DNA of 64,000 nt from the NCBI GenBank assembly GCA_021776635.1, contig JAJFFN010000038.1, positions 87,990-151,989 on the forward strand, given 5' to 3'. The translations under genes were made by a program, and so were the position numbers. Origin of the DNA: Robiginitomaculum sp. (GTDB taxonomy: Bacteria > Pseudomonadota > Alphaproteobacteria > Caulobacterales > Maricaulaceae). The stretch's first letter is position 1. The number at the start of each line of letters is the position of its first letter. The notes beneath the pieces were generated by a model that was not told where the DNA came from, made no database searches, and saw only the letters and a program-made list of their open reading frames with translations. Below are positions 11,045-41,472 of the stretch, piece after piece.

Positions 11045-11431
11045 CTAGTTTTGCTTAGAGCTAATTCCTGCCAAAACCAGCAACCCTGCTAGAATACCCA
11101 AATTCTTGATAAAGTTTTGCAGTTCGTGAGCGGCTTCTATGCCTGTGAAATTCCAGAAATCGTGCATGAGGGCATTTATCACCATGATATAAAGCACAAA
11201 GCCGAGTGAGACCAAACGCACATAACGGTTAAGCAGGAGCAAAAACGCGCCAATGATTTGTGCCGCGCCTACAATATATAAGAGCGGCAAAGCATAAGGG
11301 ATATTATGGTGCTGCATCATTTCGACCTGACTGCTGGGCACCAATAATTTAGCGATGCCAGGAAGCAGGAAATACAAGGCAAGCAGGATGCGTCCTGTGG
11401 TCACGTAAATTTTTGATGTTTTGCCTGTCAT
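11045..11431 (-). CDS. DoxX family membrane protein
   Basis: 128 aa with 4 TM helices. The N-terminal GRILLALYFLLPGIAKL pattern is typical of DoxX. Confidence 0.55.
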   Translation of the reverse strand: MTGKTSKIYVTTGRILLALYFLLPGIAKLLVPSSQVEMMQHHNIPYALPLLYIVGAAQIIGAFLLLLNRYVRLVSLGFVLYIMVINALMHDFWNFTGIEAAHELQNFIKNLGILAGLLVLAGISSKQN

Positions 11432-20630: not shown

Positions 20631-21254
20631 ATGCTTATGAGCACACTAACTGACCATGTACCTGAACAAGCACCGCGTATTGGCAATGCTTTTACCCGTT
20701 TTCTCGGGCGTCTCCTCTTAGGGCTACGCGGCTATAAGATCGAAGGCAAATTTGCCAATGAACCAAAAATGATCTTAATTGCTGCACCACACACATCTAA
20801 TTGGGATTTAATTATTGCCTTGGGAACAATCTTATCACTTGGGGTGCGCATAAACTTCATGATGAAAAAAGAAGCCTTTTTCTTTCCTCTCAAAGGGTTT
20901 TTCATAGCACTTGGCGGCGTACCGCTTGACCGAAGCAGCCCCAAAAAAGCCGTTGTACAAACTATTAAACAATTTCGCAATAACGAAAAATTTTGGCTCG
21001 CTATTCTCCCCGAAGGTACACGTAAGCCTGTAGATATCTGGAAGGCAGGTTTTATCCGTATTGCCCGTAATGCCAATGTGCCTGTTTTCATGATGGGCCT
21101 GGATAGCCGCACCAAAACATTATACTTGGACAAAATTGTTCTAAACACACAAGACCTCAAAAACAAACCGGCAGGAATTGCAATTGAACAAGCAGAAAAG
21201 CTAAGAATATATGCTAAGGAAAAATACTATGGTATCAATCCCAAAAACAACTAA
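20631..21254 (+). CDS. Lysophospholipid/1-acylglycerol-3-phosphate acyltransferase family protein
   Basis: HX4D motif APHTSNWD plus PEGTRK. It is a paralog of 38467..39036. Confidence 0.7.
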   Translation: MLMSTLTDHVPEQAPRIGNAFTRFLGRLLLGLRGYKIEGKFANEPKMILIAAPHTSNWDLIIALGTILSLGVRINFMMKKEAFFFPLKGFFIALGGVPLDRSSPKKAVVQTIKQFRNNEKFWLAILPEGTRKPVDIWKAGFIRIARNANVPVFMMGLDSRTKTLYLDKIVLNTQDLKNKPAGIAIEQAEKLRIYAKEKYYGINPKNN

Positions 21255-21261
21255 TGATATT

Positions 21262-21552
21262 TCAAATTAAGCTAAGCCGCTTTAGAGCTAGTTTGGTTGC
21301 AGACACCTCAAGAGTTAATATTGTAAACTGCCCTTTAACATTGCTATGCACCAAACCACTTTTTTTCATCATTCTGATATGATGGGAAAGACTTGGATCT
21401 GCTATATTCGCCTGCTTAGCCAAACCCCCAAAAGTTAGCCCACTAGAACCAGCCGCACGTAGAGCAAGAAAGATAGCAATCCGCCGAGGATGCCCAAGTG
21501 CATCAAAAACAAGCGCCAATTCATTTATTTCCCTAGTTGATGCAGTTTTCAT
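21262..21552 (-). CDS. ArsR/SmtB family transcriptional regulator
   Basis: 96 aa wHTH protein with FDALGHPRRIAIFLAL ... LSHHIRMMKKSGLV. Confidence 0.75.
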   Translation of the reverse strand: MKTASTREINELALVFDALGHPRRIAIFLALRAAGSSGLTFGGLAKQANIADPSLSHHIRMMKKSGLVHSNVKGQFTILTLEVSATKLALKRLSLI

Positions 21553-22117: not shown

Positions 22118-23464
22118 CTAGAGCGGTAAAGTCAAGAAACATCTCAACCCTCCAAGTGGGCTTTCTGCCAGTAATAATCTACCACCATGAGCTTGGATAA
22201 TGTCATTGGCAATTGATAAACCAAGCCCAACACCTTTGGTATTTTGGTTCCGCGCTGGGTCAAGGCGAATAAAAGGTTTAAGAACATCTTGTCGTAATGC
22301 CGCCGGGATACCTTGGCCATCATCATCTATGGTTATATGGATATGGGTTTTGCCGCGTCTGACGTGGATATTGGTATTTTTTGCGTATGATGCTGCATTG
22401 TTTATTATGTTTGACAAGGCACGTTTAATTGCAGTTTTTCGAATATTTATTGCCAATTCACCGACGAACGCAATCTTAATTTTTTCACTAGCGTCCCCAA
22501 CTATGTCTTCTAAGAGTATTTTTATATCCGTTATTTGTCTGTCTTCTTCGGACATGTCACGGGCAAAATCTAAATAGCTATCAAGCATTTTTTCCATATC
22601 GAAAATATCATTGCGTGCCGCTTGAGTTTCTTCACTTTTGTTTTCAAGTGCCAGATGTAATTTGAGCCTAGTCAAAGGTGTGCGCAGATCGTGGCTTACA
22701 CTTGCCAAAAGCGTAGTCCTTTGATCAATATGGCGGCCAATTCGGTCTCGCATTTCCAAAAAAGCATGGCCTGCCTGGCGCACTTCTGCGGCACCTGAAG
22801 GTTTAAATTTACCAATACTTCGGCCTTTACCAAAATCCTCGGCAGCTTTTGCCAATTTGACGATCGGCCTTGCTTGATTGAGGATAAACAAAATGCTGAC
22901 CAAGCTGAGTAATACTGTCGCCATTACCAACCAAAACAAGAAAATAAACCCTGTTGGTGCAAATACACGGTCCCTTGGTACGACAAATTTCAATACTTTG
23001 CCGTCAACTTTGACACGGATATCTATGTAGTGAGGATAGCGCGTGGTGTCGTACCAAAACTCATCTGTTAAATTTGAGGCCAATGCTTGACGTAATGTTT
23101 TGTCCAGGGACGAAAAAAACGCCCTGCGGGTTGCTGTCTCTAACGTGTCTTTTGCATCATACACCACAGAAAGTTTCATATTAGGGCGGATCATCTGATC
23201 TAGCCGGGCTAGGCGTTCCGCATCTGGCGCTTGCTTGTAAAGCTCAACAACAACCGCGACATCAGCCGCAACGCTGTCAGAAAGACTTGCTGTTACGGTT
23301 TGCCAATGGGCCTGAAAGAAAAAATAGGCAACAATGATTTGCATCATTGCAATAGGTAACATGATGATTAACAAGGCGCGCCCAAACAGGCTTTTGGGTA
23401 GGTACGATTTTAACCACAGTCTCCTTGAAGATTTTTTTGTAACGTGTTTCTTTGATTTACTCAT
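22118..23464 (-). CDS. Sensor histidine kinase (EnvZ-like: 2 TM, HAMP, HisKA, HATPase)
   Basis: H-box SVSHDLRTPLTRL, N-box NNAASYA, G-boxes DDDGQGIP and GVGLGLSIA. Confidence 0.85.
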   Translation of the reverse strand: MSKSKKHVTKKSSRRLWLKSYLPKSLFGRALLIIMLPIAMMQIIVAYFFFQAHWQTVTASLSDSVAADVAVVVELYKQAPDAERLARLDQMIRPNMKLSVVYDAKDTLETATRRAFFSSLDKTLRQALASNLTDEFWYDTTRYPHYIDIRVKVDGKVLKFVVPRDRVFAPTGFIFLFWLVMATVLLSLVSILFILNQARPIVKLAKAAEDFGKGRSIGKFKPSGAAEVRQAGHAFLEMRDRIGRHIDQRTTLLASVSHDLRTPLTRLKLHLALENKSEETQAARNDIFDMEKMLDSYLDFARDMSEEDRQITDIKILLEDIVGDASEKIKIAFVGELAINIRKTAIKRALSNIINNAASYAKNTNIHVRRGKTHIHITIDDDGQGIPAALRQDVLKPFIRLDPARNQNTKGVGLGLSIANDIIQAHGGRLLLAESPLGGLRCFLTLPL

Positions 23465-24167
23465 TCACCGGTTCCGCCTGTAGGCAATATCCACGGTTGC
23501 GTATAGTCGTCAGGAATTCTGGTTGGGATGGATTGTTTTCCAATTTGCGCCGTAACCGTGTTATTTGCACATCTATGGCACGGTCGCTCTTAGCTTTAAT
23601 TTGCTCGGCTAGGTTTTTGCGACTTACTGCTTGGCCTGTACGCAGAGACAATGTCGCCAGTAATGCTGTTTCACCTGTCGTTAAATGCATACGCATGCCC
23701 GATTTTTCCAAATATTTGCGATCTAAATCAAAGAGATAATCTCCAAAACGTATTTTGTGATGGCGGGGACGCGTGGCTTGACGTTTTAAGATTGCTTTTA
23801 TACGAAGGACGAGCTCTTCTGGTTCAAACGGTTTGGCAAGATAGTCATCGGCACCCAAAGATAAACCATTTATTCTGTCACTTGGTTCTCCGCGTGCTGT
23901 GAGTAATATAATCGGTATATCATCAACATCACGCAGCGATTTGGTGAGCATGAACCCATCTTCACCTGGCATCATGACATCGAGGACTAAAAGATCAAAT
24001 GTTAAGCTATTCATAAACCGCCGTGCTTCAAAAGCATTTGCGGCAATGGAAACACGAAAGCCACTTTTTGACAAAAACCTTTTGAGCAAATTGCGAATAC
24101 GGTCATCATCATCAACCACCAAAAGGTGGGTGTCTTGGAAATTTGTATTTGTATCTAGCTGCGTCAT
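23457..24167 (-). CDS. OmpR-family response regulator
   Basis: Receiver motifs VVDDD ... DLLVLDVMMPG ... LTA ... KPF, plus a C-terminal winged-helix domain. There is an 8-nt overlap with the kinase gene. Confidence 0.88.
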   Translation of the reverse strand: MTQLDTNTNFQDTHLLVVDDDDRIRNLLKRFLSKSGFRVSIAANAFEARRFMNSLTFDLLVLDVMMPGEDGFMLTKSLRDVDDIPIILLTARGEPSDRINGLSLGADDYLAKPFEPEELVLRIKAILKRQATRPRHHKIRFGDYLFDLDRKYLEKSGMRMHLTTGETALLATLSLRTGQAVSRKNLAEQIKAKSDRAIDVQITRLRRKLENNPSQPEFLTTIRNRGYCLQAEPVNE

Positions 24168-32578: not shown

Positions 32579-34507
32579 CTATTGTTCAACTTTCGCTTCA
32601 GCCTTGGTAAATATTGCATCAATTCTACGCTGGGCGATTGGGTGATAGCCTGGCCGTGCTTTGACATAAACTTCTTTTGCCCAAGTGCGCGCGTCCTCAT
32701 TTAGGCCAGCCAAGGCACCGTACAGACGATAGATAAATTTTCCGCGCCCAACGGTCATCAGAAAGCTTTCCAACTCTTTGTCGACTTTGCTGTAATTGCC
32801 CTGAATGGCTTGCATATACCACGCGAAGGCAATTTCGGCGTTTTGATGACCGTTAAAATTGAAGTCCTCGTTCATTTTCTTTAACTGTTCTTTGCTTAGA
32901 GTTTCAGAAAAATTGTTCAAGAAATGTAACCATTCATGGGTTGACCACGAGGATGTGTCACCGACGGTGCCGTCGTCCAGCCAAGCCGTGCGCGCCGCAT
33001 CCACTTTGGTGAATGCGTCTGATATAGGCGTGATAAATGTGTCAGGTAAACCGGGACCGTAAACCCAGGCTTTGAGTTCTTCGGAAGTCAAAGCGTCAGG
33101 GTTTTTCACATGCAGTTCGTCGTGCAGATATTTAATAAAATCTTCGGTTGTCACACTTTGGAAAGCGAAATGGTTGAAATAGTTTTTCAAGAATGGATCA
33201 AAATTATCACGGCCAAATCTTTGCTCAAGGAACTGCAAGAAAAATTGTCCTTTGACATATGCGACATTGGTAAATGCATCATCTGGATGCGCTAAATCTG
33301 TAGGAAGCTTAAGATGTGTCAGTTCTGGTCTGCTGGCATTTTCAATTGACCGTTTGACATCTTCAAGTCCTAATACCTGTTCCATGACTGCACGTTCGAC
33401 GCCGTACAAATCCTCCATAACGCGGTTTTCTACATAAGACGTAAACCCCTCATTCAGCCAAGCATCACGCCAGCTGGAATTTGTTACGAGATTACCAGAC
33501 CAAGAATGCGCAAGCTCGTGGGCGACAACATTGGTCAGGCTCTTATCGCCGGCAATCAGGGTAGGGGTCATGAACGATAATCTTGGGTTCTCCATGCCGC
33601 CAAATGGAAAGCTGGGCGGCAATACTATGAGGTCGTAACGGCCCCAGCGATATGGCCCGTATAACTTCGCGTTGGATGCTTCCATCAATGGAGTTTCAGA
33701 AAATTCATCAGCGGACGCATCCAAAATATATTGTTCTGCATAAACCCCAATATGGTCGTTAATGGCTTTGAATTTTATGTCGCCAACCGCAATGGCCAGC
33801 AAATATGACGGGATTGGTTGTGGCATTTTGAAATGGTATTCACCGTTTTTGTCTTTTTTGCTTTGCTCTGCGCTCATCAGTGGTAGCAAGCCGTCGGGAA
33901 CGCGCAGCGTCGCATCATATGTTATACGCACGGCAGGTGTATCTTGCACAGGTGTCATAGTGCGGGCGTTCAGGGCTTGGGCTTGTGAGAATAGATAAGG
34001 TTTTTCTTTGCCTGCGGTTTGCTCAGGCGATAACCACTGCAACCCTTCAGCTGTTGGGCTTGTCTTATAATCAATACGGACTTTATTCATACCTTTGGAA
34101 AAAGGAATTTCTAGGCGTGTGCCCAATATTTCGTCTTCATCACTGAGTGTGTAGTCCATAGCACTCCATTCGCCGGAGCTCGCCAGACCTTGCACAGAAC
34201 GGATGGTTAAATCTTTGGTGTCGAGATGTAGAGTGTGCGCGTTGTCATCTATGATTTTAAAGTCAATCGTCGCTGTTCCGTCCAAAACTTTATCTTCGAA
34301 ATTTACATCAAGGTTTAACGACAAATGGGTCATACGCACTTTGTCATAATTAGCATATGTGAATTTATCATCTTTGACGATTTTAACAATTGGTGCTTGT
34401 TCGGTTGTTTTTTCCAACGGTTTGGTTGTATCTGCTGAGCAGGCGTTCAGACCAAGTGCAAGAATAAAAGGACTTGTGATGAGTGCAGTAGAGCGAAACA
34501 GGCGCAT
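32579..34507 (-). CDS. M1 family metallopeptidase (leukotriene A4 hydrolase/aminopeptidase-like), lipoprotein
   Basis: HELAHSWSGNLV plus WLNEGFT zinc motifs and a GGMEN exopeptidase motif. Lipobox LGLNAC. The ATG at 34507 has a GGAG RBS. Confidence 0.88.
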   Translation of the reverse strand: MRLFRSTALITSPFILALGLNACSADTTKPLEKTTEQAPIVKIVKDDKFTYANYDKVRMTHLSLNLDVNFEDKVLDGTATIDFKIIDDNAHTLHLDTKDLTIRSVQGLASSGEWSAMDYTLSDEDEILGTRLEIPFSKGMNKVRIDYKTSPTAEGLQWLSPEQTAGKEKPYLFSQAQALNARTMTPVQDTPAVRITYDATLRVPDGLLPLMSAEQSKKDKNGEYHFKMPQPIPSYLLAIAVGDIKFKAINDHIGVYAEQYILDASADEFSETPLMEASNAKLYGPYRWGRYDLIVLPPSFPFGGMENPRLSFMTPTLIAGDKSLTNVVAHELAHSWSGNLVTNSSWRDAWLNEGFTSYVENRVMEDLYGVERAVMEQVLGLEDVKRSIENASRPELTHLKLPTDLAHPDDAFTNVAYVKGQFFLQFLEQRFGRDNFDPFLKNYFNHFAFQSVTTEDFIKYLHDELHVKNPDALTSEELKAWVYGPGLPDTFITPISDAFTKVDAARTAWLDDGTVGDTSSWSTHEWLHFLNNFSETLSKEQLKKMNEDFNFNGHQNAEIAFAWYMQAIQGNYSKVDKELESFLMTVGRGKFIYRLYGALAGLNEDARTWAKEVYVKARPGYHPIAQRRIDAIFTKAEAKVEQ

Positions 34508-34891
34508 ATAAATCTCCAAATTTTTTTTCGGACACTAGACGGCAAATTCTGTTGCGTAAAGGCCTGTAGTTATAAAGCTTTGCCAAATAAGCAAGGCAGT
34601 AAAGGCGCCCCTAATTTTAATGCCAGCCGTGAAATCTGCTGGGAACTCTGCCGGGAACATGCATATTATTACAAATTGATTGTTATGTATTGGACGGTCT
34701 CTTATAGGATGTGGAAAACCATACTTGGTTTACAAAATAAGGATGATGCGCATTAACTTTGGGGTCCGATGTTACAGGGAATACGAGGCAAAAATGTACG
34801 CATTTTGTAAATTATATTGTAAAGGCAGTGATGATCCTGCTTGAGTTTGCGTACTCTAGGATTCGTATGCGCCAAGCTTTCTTATATTTTA

Positions 34892-35539
34892 TTAGGCCGT
34901 ACTCGCGAAAGGCTCTTTGGTTAGTGCGTTTATGAGCGCATCTACTTTTTGTGTTAAGTTACTGATATTAAAAGTTAAAATATCAGACACAACCGTGCCA
35001 TATACTTTGCCTGTATATGTGTTGACGAGTAAGGCCTTAATTTCACCGCGCGGGGATATTGTGTGCTTGTCTACTGTAAAGCCAGTTTCAGCCATAGCTT
35101 GACCGGCAAAACTACCCCATTGGGCATCGCCGCCCATGCCGTATATTAAGACATAATCCATATTTAAATCGGATGCTGTTATGCGGATTTCATCAAGCTT
35201 GTTTTCACTTTCACGCTCAATTTTTGGCCCCATTGGCACATTTTTAAACAATGCTACCGGACTAATAGGTGCGAATGTGGTATCAGATAGCTTATCAAGT
35301 GCGGCCCAATTACGTAATTCAGCCATTGGTGCGGAGATCAAACGTCCATTCTCAATGCGTGCTATGCCAATTTTACTGCTCATTTGAATAGTTGGCTGTG
35401 GGTCTGATTTTTCCTTGAACGGGACTGTAAGAGATACTTCCTTTAGGACTGTGTTGGTTTGTTGTTGCGCCTCCTGCGCATTGGAATTAGCTGCAAAGAC
35501 TAAAGCCGATAATGCTGTGGCGATTAATAATTTCATCAT
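34892..35539 (-). CDS. Hypothetical secreted protein
   Basis: Signal peptide MMKLLIATALSALVFAANSNA. No recognisable motif. Confidence 0.5.
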   Translation of the reverse strand: MMKLLIATALSALVFAANSNAQEAQQQTNTVLKEVSLTVPFKEKSDPQPTIQMSSKIGIARIENGRLISAPMAELRNWAALDKLSDTTFAPISPVALFKNVPMGPKIERESENKLDEIRITASDLNMDYVLIYGMGGDAQWGSFAGQAMAETGFTVDKHTISPRGEIKALLVNTYTGKVYGTVVSDILTFNISNLTQKVDALINALTKEPFASTA

Positions 35540-35848
35540 GGGTTTACCTTCCGTATGTGTTACCGTATTGATTGTATGGAAGTGTATTGAGGCGCGGGTT
35601 TGCCAAAACTGTGCTCATTTGATGATTTTTTTGCCCAACAATGGCAATCTTTTGCGCAAATAAGGCGGTAATACGAAATAAGGCAAGCACTATGGTGAAT
35701 TTTGTGGTATTGCCGTCAACTTAACGTCCGGCTCACATTCAAGTGACCGTTAGAGAGCACATCGTCACCCTATGTGATGAAAAGCTTTGTTAACAAGCTA
35801 GCAAGGCGAATGTTCGCTTTTAAATATTATTATAAATGGAGTTAAATT

Positions 35849-36211
35849 ATGTCTTCCCCCCAAAATTTTACTAAAGCCCTGACTGTCGGTACATTATTGG
35901 CCGCATCTCTTGGCGTAGCTGCTACAGCCAAACCCAATTCACAAATCAGAATTGCTTCGTCGGCACCTGCTGGCGTTCAGCAAGCCTTTAATGGTTGGAT
36001 GGCCGGTGGTCGTCTCAAAGGCAGAACAAGCAAAGAAAAATGTTTTGGTGTTGCATTGACAGGTGAAAATGATTGCAAAGCCGGCGCAGGCACCTCTTGC
36101 CAAGGCTCTTCTACATCTGATTTTCAGTCCAATGCTTGGACTTATGTTCCAAAAGGTAGTTGTGCACTAATTATTACGCCAAGAGGCAACGGTTCTCTCT
36201 CTGCTCGCTAG
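35849..36211 (+). CDS. DUF2282-type secreted Cys-rich peptide (candidate RiPP precursor, BufA-like)
   Basis: Sec signal peptide ending AATA. The core [24 protein letters not shown]...KGSCALI has Cys65, Cys76, Cys84 and Cys105. A GGAG RBS lies 7 nt upstream. Confidence 0.75.
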
Positions 36212-36246
36212 TCGGCATAAAAACATTTAAAGTTTAGACGATAAAA

Positions 36247-37092
36247 ATGACTAAACTACCAAATATGGCCGGAATGGGTCTGAAGCCGGAATTTTTCCGC
36301 GAAGCTTTAGAACATCCCGGCCAAAATATGTGGTACGAAGTTCACCCTGAAAATTACATGGTGGACGGCGGGCCAAGATTGGCTTGGCTTGAGGCTATTG
36401 CCGACAAATTCCCCTTGAGCTTACACGGGGTCGGGGCGTCTCTCGGCGGGCTTGACCCATTCGATAAGACGCATCTAAAGTCACTGCGTAAATTAATAGA
36501 GCGTTTTAACCCAGCGCAGGTGTCTGAACACGCTACATGGTCTAGTTTTGAGGGTCAATATTTTGCTGACCTCCTACCGATGCCGCGAACCAAAGCGGCG
36601 CAAGATAATATGGTTGACCGAATTGACGAGTTTCAGTCGTCCATAGGACGGCGTATTTTAATAGAAAACCCGACCAATTATATGGCGACCAATTCCGAAT
36701 TAGACGAGCCTGATTTTCTGGTGGAAATCGCGAGGCGGGCAGGGTGCGGATTGTTGCTTGATGTCAACAATGTTTATATTAGCGCCGTCAATGTTGGCAT
36801 AGATGCAAGCGCCTACATACATGCTTTACCGACAGACTTAATCGGAGAAATCCACATTGCAGGTTTTGACGAAGATCCAAAGTACGGCAAAAAATTACTC
36901 ATAGATGCCCACTCGTCGCCTGTTTCTGAGCCCGTATGGGACCTGTTGGATACGGCTTTGGCACATATTGGCCCTGTGCCCGTATTGCTAGAGAGAGACG
37001 GGAATATTCCCGAATTTTCAGAGCTGTTAAAAGAACACGGTCGCGCGGGAGCCGCATTAGATGCGCAGCTTGTTACAGAGGTGGCGGTATGA
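36247..37092 (+). CDS. DUF692/UPF0276 family enzyme (MbnB-like multinuclear non-heme iron oxidase)
   Basis: GLKPEFF...YEVHPENYM...LSLHGVGASLGG...SEH...DLLPMP...IENP...LLDVNN...EIHIAG is the characteristic DUF692 TIM-barrel pattern. Confidence 0.82.
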   Translation: MTKLPNMAGMGLKPEFFREALEHPGQNMWYEVHPENYMVDGGPRLAWLEAIADKFPLSLHGVGASLGGLDPFDKTHLKSLRKLIERFNPAQVSEHATWSSFEGQYFADLLPMPRTKAAQDNMVDRIDEFQSSIGRRILIENPTNYMATNSELDEPDFLVEIARRAGCGLLLDVNNVYISAVNVGIDASAYIHALPTDLIGEIHIAGFDEDPKYGKKLLIDAHSSPVSEPVWDLLDTALAHIGPVPVLLERDGNIPEFSELLKEHGRAGAALDAQLVTEVAV

Positions 37093-37892
37093 AAAACTAT
37101 ATGCAAACCATGGCGGGCGTGCTGAGCGGCACCCACTCAACCAGTCCAGTAGATTTAAAGTATTTTGATGCGAAATATGTCAGCGTCTACCGTAATAACT
37201 CAGTCACAGCCCATATAGACGTACTTAAGGCAAATTATAAATCTGTTTTAGAACTTGTCGGCGATGAATTTTTTGCAGGTATATGCCTAGAATACATTAA
37301 AAACTACCCCGCCCGCCAGCGTAGTCTGGTTGGTTACGGAGAGCATTTTACTACGTTTACTGAAGATAATTTAGAGCGGCATAAACTCCCGTATCTAGCA
37401 AGTTTCGCGTGTTTAGACCGTGCTTGGACATTAGCGCATATCGCTAAAGATGCCGAGGCGCTGCACATGTCAGTCCTGGAAAATATTATCCAACTTGGTG
37501 GTGATTTGGAGAAGTTTGAAATGACCCTCAAGCCAGATGTGTTTTTGGTGCGTAATATGTGGGCGGTGTTTTCAATCTGGGCGGCGCTTCGTGAAGATAA
37601 AAAGCTTACGAAAGCCGTTGAACTGGATGAACAACATGAAAATGTGTTGGTATGGCGCTACGGACTAGACGTAAGATATAGAGATTTGAACGATGCAGAA
37701 TTTGCATTTTTAAATACGATTAAAGAAGGTGGAAACCTCGGTTTGGCGACCGTGAAGGCACTGGCAGTTGAGCCATCCACTGATGTCGGGCAATTATTAA
37801 GCGGCATGGTTGCTGCAGAACTTTTTAAAGCGAACAAAAATACTAAAAAAATTGATGACAAGAAACTTACAAATGGAGGCGCATATGCGTAA
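37089..37892 (+). CDS. DUF2063 family protein (MbnC-like partner of DUF692)
   Basis: The ATG at 37089 overlaps the DUF692 stop (ATGA). The N-terminal VYRNN...L...Y.....VG..FF pattern is typical of DUF2063. Confidence 0.7.
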   Translation: MKNYMQTMAGVLSGTHSTSPVDLKYFDAKYVSVYRNNSVTAHIDVLKANYKSVLELVGDEFFAGICLEYIKNYPARQRSLVGYGEHFTTFTEDNLERHKLPYLASFACLDRAWTLAHIAKDAEALHMSVLENIIQLGGDLEKFEMTLKPDVFLVRNMWAVFSIWAALREDKKLTKAVELDEQHENVLVWRYGLDVRYRDLNDAEFAFLNTIKEGGNLGLATVKALAVEPSTDVGQLLSGMVAAELFKANKNTKKIDDKKLTNGGAYA

Positions 37893-38415
37893 AATATTAT
37901 CTAAATTATCTGGCTTATTGACTTTTTGGTACCCTTACACAGAAAAACTACAATTTTTGGCTTTGCTATTTGCCCGTATCGCCGTTGGTCGCGTATTTTT
38001 AAAATCTGGTCTAGTAAAGTGGAACGGTTTTTTTAAGTTTAATGCCAGTACATATGATCTGTTTGAGTATGAATTTTTCTGCCCAGAAGAAGTCCGTAAG
38101 GGTGCGCTTTATCTGTGCGACAAAGCGGAACAAGATTACACCAACGAAACTGTCCGCTTTATCATTGACCGCTTTGCCAATCTTGCGGGTATTATGGAAG
38201 TTGCATTGGGAGCCGCCATCATTGTTGGTCTCTACTCACGAGTTGCAGCCCTTGGTTTGCTCGGCATGACATTATTCATCCAACTTTTTGTCTTCCCTGA
38301 CGCTGCAAGTTGGTGGGGTAGTCATGCTTGGTGGGTCGCTTGCTTGCTTGCTGTTCTGGCTTTTGGCCCAGGTAAAGCTTCTCTTGATCATATATTCAAG
38401 CTAGACGCGAAATAA
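37885..38415 (+). CDS. DoxX family membrane protein
   Basis: The ATG at 37885 is preceded by GGAGG and overlaps the DUF2063 gene by 8 nt. FARIAVGRVFLKSGLVKW and about 4 TM helices are present. Confidence 0.7.
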   Translation: MRKILSKLSGLLTFWYPYTEKLQFLALLFARIAVGRVFLKSGLVKWNGFFKFNASTYDLFEYEFFCPEEVRKGALYLCDKAEQDYTNETVRFIIDRFANLAGIMEVALGAAIIVGLYSRVAALGLLGMTLFIQLFVFPDAASWWGSHAWWVACLLAVLAFGPGKASLDHIFKLDAK

Positions 38416-38466
38416 AAACCCAGCCATAAAGGCGGCGTGAAACGTGTAGGATTAATTTCAGAAAAT

Positions 38467-39268: not shown

Positions 39269-39475
39269 GTGACCAAACAGCCAAAACCACGGTCTGACCT
39301 CATGTTTCAGGAATCAAATTTGCCTAAACCTGTTGAATTCGATTATTCAAGAGACATTAAGGAAAAGCACTTTGATGTTATGGATGAAGCCATGATGCAT
39401 CGTTCTGGCCTGTCTAAGGAAGAATTAGAAGAAGCATTAGCCGAAGGCATTTTAGTCGGCGGCGAAATCTGGTAG
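39269..39475 (+). CDS. Hypothetical 68-aa acidic protein (candidate antitoxin)
   Basis: GTG start 7 nt after AAGGAG. The gene ends 5 nt before the PemK-like ORF. The C-terminus is acidic and no DNA-binding motif is recognisable. Confidence 0.5.
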   Translation: MTKQPKPRSDLMFQESNLPKPVEFDYSRDIKEKHFDVMDEAMMHRSGLSKEELEEALAEGILVGGEIW

Positions 39476-39480
39476 AGATT

Positions 39481-39936
39481 GTGCCAGTTGTACTCGGACA
39501 CAACATATATAGCATATCATCATCGCCAGAAATATATGATATTGTCTGGGTGAATTTTCCATATAATGAAGTTCCATATGAGCCTGGGCCAGATAAACAT
39601 CCAGGTCTAGTTCTATCAAAAAGTGTTTTTCGGGATAAGAAAACTGAACTAAATTACGCTTCACTGCAAATTGCGTATGGAACCTCACAACCACAAAATG
39701 ATAGGCTTCCATGGGAAGTATTGCGAGTACATAACTACGTAGCTCTAGAGAGATGCGGGCTATGCAGAGACACATCTTTTATTTTGAGTAGAGTGCAGCG
39801 CATATTATGGTGTGAAGAATATTTTCCCATCAGTGAACACGGTACACCAATTTTGGGTAAGTTGCCTCATTCTCAAATTCTGGCTCTTAAAACATTGAAA
39901 GAAGTGAGGGATGCACTCAAAAAACAAACTGACTAA
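39481..39936 (+). CDS. PemK/MazF-like (CcdB/MazF-fold) putative toxin
   Basis: YDIVWVNFPY.....EPGPDKHPGLVLS resembles the MazF/PemK N-terminal signature GDI.wV.F.P..G.E..g.RP.lVlS. The later AYGTSQ...PWEVL...GL.RDTSFILSRVQRI fits the remaining beta-strands. Confidence 0.55.
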   Translation: MPVVLGHNIYSISSSPEIYDIVWVNFPYNEVPYEPGPDKHPGLVLSKSVFRDKKTELNYASLQIAYGTSQPQNDRLPWEVLRVHNYVALERCGLCRDTSFILSRVQRILWCEEYFPISEHGTPILGKLPHSQILALKTLKEVRDALKKQTD

Positions 39937-40030: not shown

Positions 40031-40567
40031 ATGAGCACCAAAAAACATAAAGGGATTCGCATATTGGGGATTGACCCTTCACTGGTTAAATGCGGTTGGG
40101 GTGTGGTTGACGCGGAAGGCCTGAAGATTACCCATATCGGTCACGGCGTCATTAAGCCTGCCGTCAATCAGGACATGGCTTTGCGTCTGAACCAATTATT
40201 TGATGAACTTTCGCAGTTGATAAATACATTTGCTCCAGACGAAGCGGCGGTGGAAGAGGTGTTCATGAACAATAATCCGGCATCGGCAATGAAACTCGGA
40301 CATGCCCGCGCGGTTTGTTTGTTGGCGCCCGCGCAAGTCGGCTTATATGTGGGCGAATACTCAGCCAAAAAGGTCAAAAAATCTGTGGTTGGTACCGGCC
40401 AAGCTGACAAAACCCAAGTCGCCGCCATGATGAATGTCCTGCTGCCCGGCCAAAAATTAAAAGCAGGCGACGCGGCGGATGCGCTCGCGATCGCTATATG
40501 TCATGCGCACAGAGCAAGTGCTGCAGGGGCTTTGCAAAATAGATTGAATAAAGGGAATTTAGCATGA
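40031..40567 (+). CDS. ruvC: Crossover junction endodeoxyribonuclease RuvC
   Basis: ILGIDPSL..CGWGVV ... the EVF..NN....KLG.ARAV pattern, and DAADALAIAICHA. Confidence 0.9.
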   Translation: MSTKKHKGIRILGIDPSLVKCGWGVVDAEGLKITHIGHGVIKPAVNQDMALRLNQLFDELSQLINTFAPDEAAVEEVFMNNNPASAMKLGHARAVCLLAPAQVGLYVGEYSAKKVKKSVVGTGQADKTQVAAMMNVLLPGQKLKAGDAADALAIAICHAHRASAAGALQNRLNKGNLA

Positions 40568-41472
40568 AAAATACTTTATTTAGTGCGTTTTTGGTCATTG
40601 CTTTGATTGGTATTACAGGATGTGGGGAGAAAACTAGTTCAGTAGTATCAAGTGAGGGTCTAACATGTCCATCTATAGAGAATGTTGATGTTATTATAAA
40701 TGATGGCTCACCTAAAACTATAGTGTTCGGGGAAATTCATGGCACTAATCAGTCGCCAAAATTTGTAGGAGATGTTCTCTGTCATGCCCTCAAAAAAGGA
40801 CTGCGGGTCACTCTGGCTCTGGAGTATCCAGATACTGAAAAAGCTGATATTAGTAACTTTCTAGAAGATAAAACAGGACAAGCTGATGCAGATTTTCTAC
40901 AATCAAAAATTTGGACGAATGAGTTTACAGATGGGCGCTCTAGTCAGGCTATGTGGGATTTGTTCAAACAAATAAAGTTGTACAAACAGCAAGGCTTTGA
41001 AGTCGACATTTTGCCCATCATTCATTATTTAACTTTCGAAGAAAAAACCTTTGGCATGACGAATGCGGATTACAGCCAAATATATGAAGAGCAGATGGCG
41101 GCAAATATACTAACCGCATCGGGTGATAAAATTTTTGTGCTTGTTGGCAATTATCACGCTAAACGAGGGTGGGCAAAGTCAGGGGAAGAAAAATACCAAC
41201 ATATGGCAGAGCATTTGCCCAAAGATGAAAGCCTGTTGCTAAACGCCCATTCTTATAAAGGTACGAGTTGGAATTGTAGGGGGCGGACAAAGGAGGACTG
41301 TAAGGCCTGGAAGTCAGGACATAGGCCTCATGATGTTGAACCAATTACGCCGAATAAAGATAGAGATTGGAGCATCCAATTGTTCGATACCGAGTTAGAT
41401 GGTTATGACGGGGTGTATGTCATCGGCTCAGTTACAGCATCGCCACCCGCTATAAGTCAGGAAAACCCCTAA
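40564..41472 (+). CDS. Lipoprotein of the ChaN/Tiki/erythromycin-esterase-like superfamily
   Basis: Lipobox IGITGC. FGEIHGTNQSP...LALEYP, EEQMAANI and VLVGNYHA match the GExH / E..M / GxxH layout of that superfamily. ATGA overlap with ruvC and TAATG overlap with ruvA. Confidence 0.5.
   Translation: MKNTLFSAFLVIALIGITGCGEKTSSVVSSEGLTCPSIENVDVIINDGSPKTIVFGEIHGTNQSPKFVGDVLCHALKKGLRVTLALEYPDTEKADISNFLEDKTGQADADFLQSKIWTNEFTDGRSSQAMWDLFKQIKLYKQQGFEVDILPIIHYLTFEEKTFGMTNADYSQIYEEQMAANILTASGDKIFVLVGNYHAKRGWAKSGEEKYQHMAEHLPKDESLLLNAHSYKGTSWNCRGRTKEDCKAWKSGHRPHDVEPITPNKDRDWSIQLFDTELDGYDGVYVIGSVTASPPAISQENP

Follow-up and report, generated by a model that had tools for sequence, protein, structure and literature searches.

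The 64,000-nucleotide stretch analysed here (the window; contig JAJFFN010000038.1 of assembly GCA_021776635.1, Robiginitomaculum sp., positions 87,990 to 151,989 of the forward strand) carries a four-gene operon, bufABCD, that we assign to the bufferin 1 type of captophorin cluster. By analogy with the characterised system, we put at about 85% the probability that this is a chromosomal bufferin operon of a Robiginitomaculum-like marine alphaproteobacterium with a chemistry and role like those of Buf1. The assignment is carried by the organization of the genes, their family membership, the conserved metal ligands of BufB, the fold of the partner protein BufC and the conserved Cys pattern of the precursor BufA. 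The system is already known and annotated: it has been characterised experimentally, is named in Pfam and NCBIfam, and belongs to a very large family, described between 2024 and 2026, with Buf1 precursors numbering in the thousands in a survey that gives the cluster core as genes for a precursor, a multinuclear non-haem iron oxidase (MNIO), a DUF2063 protein and a DoxX protein (PMC12452194). Bufferins, oxazolin, fontiphorin and their relatives were united as ‘captophorins’ in a 2026 paper (PMC13097082). The operon is one further example of this large, characterised family of periplasmic copper-buffering peptides that are made on ribosomes and modified post-translationally (RiPPs), and it leaves the overall picture unchanged. 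All that sets it apart is that it belongs to a small marine subtype in which the precursor is longer and the membrane partner BufD has a loop with Cys residues.

The four genes are co-directional and nearly without spacing, exactly where the original prediction had placed them (Table 1). A 35-nt gap separates bufA from bufB, bufB and bufC share an ATGA overlap (37089-37092), and bufC and bufD overlap by 8 nt, ATGCGTAA (37885-37892). Shine–Dalgarno-like sequences precede bufA (GGAG, 9 nt upstream), bufC (GAGGTGG) and bufD (GGAGG), and the start residues of BufC and BufD are shared with homologues, which supports both start calls. Coordinates, overlaps and ribosome-binding sites together fit a translationally coupled operon. 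The G+C content of the operon (45.2%) is close to that of the window (45.0%), which is an ordinary piece of chromosome with uvrC, folB, an M1 aminopeptidase gene, ruvCAB, tol/exb-type genes, topA, the RNase R gene and nadA, among others. A protein identical to BufA, with the same gene neighbours, is encoded on a 29-kb contig from a public sequencing run. The nearest genomes are those of Robiginitomaculum, whose BufB is 76-78% identical; next come Hellea, Hyphomonas and Algimonas. The closest relatives, Robiginitomaculum among them, are known from metagenome-assembled genomes of marine and subseafloor origin. The same four-gene order is found in Robiginitomaculum, Hyphomonas, Algimonas, Gynuella and Paraglaciecola.

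Table 1 Features of the bufABCD locus (positions are those of the window)
Feature	Position	Strand	Description	Profile match (bits against Pfam gathering score)
bufA	35849-36211	+	120 aa; precursor of bufferin 1 (DUF2282/BufA1)	DUF2282 (PF10048, BufA1 in newer Pfam releases), 77.1 against 22.4
bufB	36247-37092	+	281 aa; MNIO, formerly DUF692	MbnB_TglH_ChrH, 309.8 against 25
bufC	37089-37892	+	267 aa; MNIO partner, DUF2063 N-domain and a C-domain of strands and helices	DUF2063 (PF09836, HvfC_N), 50.8 against 27.2
bufD	37885-38415	+	176 aa; DoxX-family membrane protein	DoxX (PF07681), 40.3 against 23.6; residues 97-136 only
Predicted Sec signal peptide	35849-35929	+	BufA residues 1-27, cleavage ATA/KPN	
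N-terminal extension of mature BufA	35930-36040	+	Residues 28-64, KPNxQ[IL]x[IL]...AP..V...F..W..G..L.G[RK]K	
DUF2282 core of BufA	36041-36208	+	CysI-CysIV (65, 76, 84, 105)	Residues 62-110, profile positions 1-50 of 53
BufD loop	38053-38118	+	YDLFEYEFFCPEEVRKGALYLC; residues 57-78 with Cys66 and Cys78, within an insert of ~25 aa between transmembrane segments 1 and 2	
Conserved upstream footprint	35733-35770	+	TCACATTCAAGTGACC-N14-CGTCACC, also written TCACAWTCAAGTKAC-N-GTCAC; 38 nt, 79-116 nt upstream of bufA	
Acyltransferase gene	38437 (GTG) or 38467 (ATG) to 39036	+	HTSNWD (HX4D)	PF01553

Profile matches were judged against the gathering scores of Pfam and, for NCBIfam equivalogs, against the cut-offs of the individual models. 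All four proteins lie above their Pfam cut-offs, in agreement with the DUF2282, DUF692, DUF2063 and DoxX assignments proposed earlier from the sequence alone. BufB in addition exceeds the cut-off of the NCBIfam equivalog NF050167, ‘MNIO family bufferin maturase BufB’ (344.1 against 310 bits), and falls below those of the HvfB, ApyH, MbnB and ChrH models. Together, the family matches and this equivalog support the view of the original prediction that the locus encodes a bufferin-like, periplasmic, Cys-modified metal-binding RiPP.

Among solved structures, 3BWW is the best relative of BufB, and TglH and MbnB come next. Mapped through the alignment from what we take to be the numbering of the MbnB metal ligands, the candidate ligands of BufB are H60, H95, E140, D172, N175, H203, D220, H222 and E249; BufB has all nine, and across 64 aligned BufB sequences, among them that of the window, they are invariant in 63-64. 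For the partner protein BufC, an AlphaFold model built on 26 homologues (mean predicted local distance difference test (pLDDT) score 85.7) has as its top Foldseek match in the PDB the DUF2063 partner from N. gonorrhoeae, 3DEE (E = 8.7e-7, target-normalised TM-score 0.67), and also matches TglI in the TglHI holoenzyme. The C-domain of the model appears similar to a RiPP recognition element (RRE), judging by its layout of strands and helices and by matches to TbiB1, a leader-binding RiPP-recognition protein of lasso peptides, which stand far down the Foldseek list and are non-significant (E ~1-3); with its DUF2063 N-domain, BufC would be a partner protein of PME type 1.

BufA itself has the four Cys residues noted at the outset for this 120-residue protein, at positions 65, 76, 84 and 105, in the contexts EKCFGV, NDCKAG, SCQG and GSC. 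These four Cys and eight other core residues are invariant in 58 aligned BufA homologues. In keeping with the roles described for central and outer Cys residues (PMC11626156, PMC12452194), thiooxazoles would be expected at Cys76 and Cys84, and a disulfide between Cys65 and Cys105. AlphaFold models the loop between Cys76 and Cys84 poorly, as would be expected of a site that is chemically rewritten, and no solved bufferin structure matched BufA in either a sequence search or a fold search. The N-terminus bears out the Sec signal peptide predicted earlier (GVAATA/KPN): by eye, it has the layout of n-, h- and c-regions, with K9, a hydrophobic stretch from residue 10 to 24, A-T-A, and KPN following residue 27, and the mean pLDDT of residues 1-30 is below 50.

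In chemistry, export, copper binding and physiology, the system of the window would follow what has been published for Buf1 of Caulobacter vibrioides. There, BufB together with BufC is both required and enough for the conversion of the two central Cys residues of BufA1 to 5-thiooxazoles, and the outer Cys residues form a disulfide, for a total change of -10 Da; the precursor is exported by Sec and cut where a signal-peptidase site is predicted; the product binds both Cu(I) and Cu(II), and growth under copper stress is better with it; and BufD is dispensable for both modification and phenotype (all PMC11626156). By analogy, BufA of the window would be made with a Sec signal peptide, and a cytoplasmic complex of the multi-iron oxidase BufB with its DUF2063/RRE partner BufC would use O2 to turn Cys76 and Cys84 into 5-thiooxazoles, at -4 Da each, the shift per modified Cys that the original prediction had anticipated and that agrees with the literature (PMC11626156). 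Sec would then export the precursor, cleavage would follow Ala27 and a disulfide would form between Cys65 and Cys105, leaving a 93-residue periplasmic mini-protein that would chelate Cu(I)/Cu(II) through its thiooxazoles and buffer copper stress. BufD, the DoxX protein, would be an accessory membrane protein, with modification proceeding without it; a DoxX gene is frequent in bufferin 1 clusters but is no obligatory member.

Between the predicted cleavage site and the first Cys, BufA has 37 residues (28-64). A spacer of roughly 35 residues had been singled out earlier as an oddity of this precursor; the stretch exists as stated, but a subfamily shares it as a conserved extension whose fold is predicted with confidence. 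Its motif is found in at least 66 clusters at 90% identity, from marine alphaproteobacteria and from gammaproteobacteria (Gynuella, Paraglaciecola), and P29 and W50 are invariant in 29 of 29 aligned extensions. AlphaFold places a strand at residues 34-35 and a helix at 41-51, with block mean pLDDT values of ~85, 86 and 77 across residues 31-60, and the conserved V42, F46 and W50, spaced at i, i+4 and i+8, line one face of that helix. Among 1.84 billion representative proteins, the extension's profile picks out BufA1-like proteins only (~17 clusters at 50% identity), always with the match directly behind the signal peptide; we reject the idea that the extension is a module shared with other proteins. 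Large multi-stretch matches from the same search look like low-complexity noise. On the strength of the model and the conservation, the extension is probably a folded N-terminal part that marks a small subfamily from marine alpha- and gammaproteobacteria, and most likely a structural part of mature BufA.

The same stretch could instead be a leader, a recognition sequence that the RRE domain of BufC binds as a β-strand and that may be trimmed after export. The strand-like Q-[IL]-x-[IL] motif is conserved directly behind the cleavage site, an RRE domain takes up its leader as a strand and a C-domain of that kind is present in the BufC model, the authors of the Buf1 survey report, as a preliminary finding, that sequence at the precursor's N-terminus plays a part in recognition (PMC12452194), and a gene for a periplasmic-type M1 aminopeptidase lies 1.3 kb upstream. 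We nevertheless regard a leader function as unlikely. The AlphaFold monomer already models residues 31-60 well, as a strand and an amphipathic helix, the core alone is enough for modification in Caulobacter, and no protease is conserved with the cluster. BufC, moreover, gives no sign of specialization for the long precursor: identity between alpha- and gammaproteobacterial long-form clusters is 27-31%, no higher than their 29-32% identity to short-form clusters.

A second trait accompanies the extension that we favour as a structural part of BufA. The insert between the first two transmembrane segments of BufD contains a loop with the near-invariant sequence YDLFxYEFFCPxxxRxxALxLC, seen also in BufD of the homologous loci L001-L006, L013-L015, L068, L069 and L076-L133; Y57, D58, L59, F60, Y62, E63, F64, F65, C66, P67, R71, A74, L75, L77 and C78 are invariant in the alpha- and gammaproteobacterial members. 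The insert is absent in short-precursor clusters, and the BufD proteins of other long-form clusters share 43-81% identity with that of the window. By the positive-inside rule, with charge counts of +4/-1 in the N-terminus and +6/-10 in the loop, the loop would lie in the periplasm. When metagenome contigs were scanned with a BufD profile, all 27 loop-bearing loci with a readable upstream region had a long-form BufA; across metagenomes and genomes, extension and loop occur together in 39 of 39 readable BufD-bearing loci. The papers searched mention neither the extension nor the loop, and the two-Cys BufD loop of the long-precursor subfamily is apparently an undescribed detail. The window also has a second, plain DoxX gene (11045-11431 (-), 127 aa) without surrounding buf genes, its similarity to BufD limited to a stretch of 32 residues.

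Co-evolution of extension and loop is not demonstrable from this pairing. In a rough neighbour-joining tree of BufB, all clusters with a long precursor and a Cys loop fall in one clade, which amounts to a single evolutionary event, so that shared ancestry explains the co-occurrence equally well. For this comparison, pattern matching had mislabelled L118 as short, and the BufD loop of L102 falls outside the pattern. A divergent long-form cluster outside this clade, L074, has a BufD with a different Cys-containing insert and hints at a second data point, and perhaps a second origin, for the pairing. An apparent counter-example, a 5-kb metagenome contig of the Joint Genome Institute (L071) that combines a short BufA with a Cys-loop BufD, was set aside: beginning with the KEKCYG core of bufA, its sequence matches that of L001 at 99.9% identity, its upstream part (an extracytoplasmic function (ECF) sigma factor, a zf-HC2 anti-sigma factor and a short signal peptide) is unrelated to L001, and it looks like an assembly chimera or a recombinant with its junction at the conserved core. 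It is conceivable that the long-precursor clusters are a functionally distinct subtype in which the folded extension of BufA docks on the periplasmic two-Cys loop of BufD, giving the DoxX partner a defined job, but this proposal is tentative and, as it stands, doubtful. If it were true, BufD might form or re-reduce the CysI-CysIV disulfide, take part in redox cycling of the thiooxazole thiols or hand off copper at the membrane. Should extension and loop work together, the subfamily would lend itself well to uncovering the role of DoxX proteins in bufferin clusters. BufD is dispensable in Caulobacter; these traits are a modest lead on that role.

Some Robiginitomaculum relatives have a second, tandem precursor gene (L008:3815-4546, L009:2388-2993 and L010:5080-5916). 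These second precursors are lipoprotein-type (lipobox AGVGC) long forms of BufA, 201-278 aa in length, in which the Cys-pair loop is repeated ~7-11 times, and two database relatives of 210 aa (P0035 and P0060) have 15 Cys each. Clusters of the repeat precursors contain bufB and bufC and lack bufD. Judging by their sequences, the repeat precursors look like membrane-anchored, high-capacity bufferins, a hint of copper sponges built on the DUF2282 scaffold.

Pfam scans of 47 open reading frames (ORFs), precomputed Pfam matches covering the central 16 kb and tblastn searches with queries for ECF, NrsF and zf-HC2 turned up no ECF sigma factor, NrsF or zf-HC2 anti-sigma gene in the window. The lack of an adjacent sigma/anti-sigma pair had been read earlier as unusual; the absence is real, but within the long-precursor subfamily it is the rule, with an ECF/zf-HC2 pair in only ~3 of ~40 loci, as opposed to the sampled short-precursor clusters, which carry SigF/NrsF-type or ECF/zf-HC2 pairs. 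Sigma/NrsF genes accompany some Buf1 clusters only (PMC12452194). Upstream of bufA we found a conserved footprint, the blocks TCACAWTCAAGTKA and GTCA of which are invariant in nine aligned upstream regions of Robiginitomaculum and Hellea relatives while the remaining spacer has diverged. The motif occurs once in the window and was not found upstream of the other long-form loci scanned, except for a variant with a 6-nt spacer at L090. We regard the footprint as a putative promoter or operator, acted on by a regulator whose gene would lie elsewhere. The SigF promoter of Caulobacter is GTAACC-N16-CGAA (PMC3511200); the footprint's -35-like GTGACC resembles GTAACC, but spacing and -10 element differ, and the likeness to a SigF-type promoter is weak. 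A small palindrome, GCGAATGTTCGC, lies closer to the bufA start codon and is also present in L006 and L008. No known RNA element was found in the 5′ region, the sole match being a chance microRNA below threshold, and promoter and terminator scans gave counts equal to the shuffled expectation.

Several points weigh against the assignment as Buf1-like. The precursor BufA has no NCBIfam match at all, and BufC and BufD lie far under the equivalog cut-offs of HvfC and HvfX, which makes them divergent partners. The DoxX profile matches part of BufD only, and no copper-related gene or regulator adjoins the cluster. For related products, the assignment of the modified group as a thiooxazole or as an oxazolone-thioamide is debated (PMC13097082). 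The same cluster and chemistry could also serve another role or another metal, either copper acquisition or storage in the manner of a chalkophore, or, where the habitat is deep sea or crustal fluid, the handling of a further thiophilic metal such as Au, Hg, Ag, Zn or Cd, and not copper detoxification. Such a role would fit the failure to find a copper sensor, sigma/anti-sigma pair or copper-efflux gene in the window, the marine and subseafloor origin of the closest relatives, and the reports that gold induction was what first drew notice to homologous operons and that MerC–bufferin fusions exist (PMC11626156, PMC12452194). We consider it quite unlikely, given that copper binding and protection from copper are shared by all of the characterised Buf1, Buf2 and related thiooxazole peptides, and that the metal-binding Cys loop of BufA is conserved with short-form bufferins.

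The gene that follows bufD on the same strand encodes an HX4D acyltransferase. The original prediction correctly placed it, starting at 38437 or 38467, and suggested that it might be co-transcribed; its match to PF01553 is confirmed, and a link to the cluster finds no support in comparative genomics, as the two are adjacent in close relatives only. That it is a fifth member of the operon, which acylates the bufferin or acts with BufD, is highly improbable: it does start 21 nt (GTG) or 51 nt (ATG) behind bufD, with no terminator-like site in the gap and the adjacency kept in L001, L003-L005 and L008-L010, but the terminator scan found no more sites than in shuffled sequence and lends no weight to co-transcription, the gene is missing beside the cluster in L006 of the same clade (where ruvC follows bufD directly) and in every one of the long-form clusters that are more distant (Hyphomonas, Algimonas, L015, Gynuella and Paraglaciecola, which have other neighbours), it stays with the ruvC-ruvA neighbourhood in relatives, and a 38%-identical paralogue elsewhere in the window (20631-21254) fits a housekeeping lipid acyltransferase. 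Read-through transcription from bufD is possible; a functional link to the bufferin is unlikely.

Other genes around the operon were noted in passing. The second small PF01553 acyltransferase gene (20631-21254 (+)) adjoins an ArsR-type helix-turn-helix regulator, with an OmpR-type two-component pair nearby (regions 21262-21552 (-) and 22118-24167 (-)). Divergent from bufA, the upstream gene at 34892-35539 (-) encodes a 215-aa secreted protein without a family match, which is syntenic and has paralogues in several close relatives; beyond it lies the gene for the M1 aminopeptidase (32579-34519 (-)), which has a lipoprotein-like signal. Neither of these two genes accompanies the cluster outside this clade. 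Between the acyltransferase gene and ruvC are two small ORFs of 68 and 151 aa (39269-39936 (+)) without Pfam matches, 85-92% conserved in L009, and a 302-aa ORF without matches (40564-41472) is inserted between ruvC and ruvA.

Among known systems, the methanobactin cluster MbnABC has an oxidase of the same superfamily as BufB and the metal-ligand positions align, but BufB scores only ~65 bits on TIGR04159 against a cut-off of 325, its partner is a DUF2063 protein instead of MbnC, and the precursor is a small protein exported by Sec rather than a short leader/core peptide; a methanobactin system is ruled out. The HvfABC(X)/oxazolin, fontiphorin and bulbicupramide systems likewise combine an MNIO with a DUF2063 partner, often together with DoxX, and make copper-binding heterocycles from Cys. 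Precursors of these systems have EGKCG repeats, which BufA lacks, and with scores of 234.8 against 360 for HvfB, 20 against 142 for HvfC and 24.6 against 80 for HvfX, the HvfABC/oxazolin type is ruled out as well.

The closest likeness is to the bufferin 1 cluster of Caulobacter vibrioides, buf1ABCD (CCNA_03363-03366; Leprevost et al. 2024, PMC11626156), which shares the order DUF2282 precursor, MNIO, DUF2063 partner and DoxX. The precursors share a Sec signal peptide and four conserved Cys residues, BufB of the window passes the BufB equivalog, and the partner has the DUF2063, 3DEE-like fold. The differences are that the mature peptide is predicted to have 93 residues here, as opposed to 68 in Caulobacter Buf1, because of the conserved 37-residue N-terminal extension; that BufD has an insert of ~25 aa with two invariant Cys; that a SigF/NrsF pair is not nearby; and that BufC and BufD lie under every NCBIfam equivalog cut-off. 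Short-precursor Buf1 clusters with an adjacent ECF sigma/NrsF pair, such as those of Herbaspirillum (L016-L020) and Novosphingobium (L049 and L055) and that of L072, have neither the extension of the precursor nor the Cys loop of BufD, and the majority of them lie outside the long-form clade of the neighbour-joining BufB tree. They contain the same four families as the operon described here, with a BufA core that is 55-67% identical and a BufB that is 37-55% identical.

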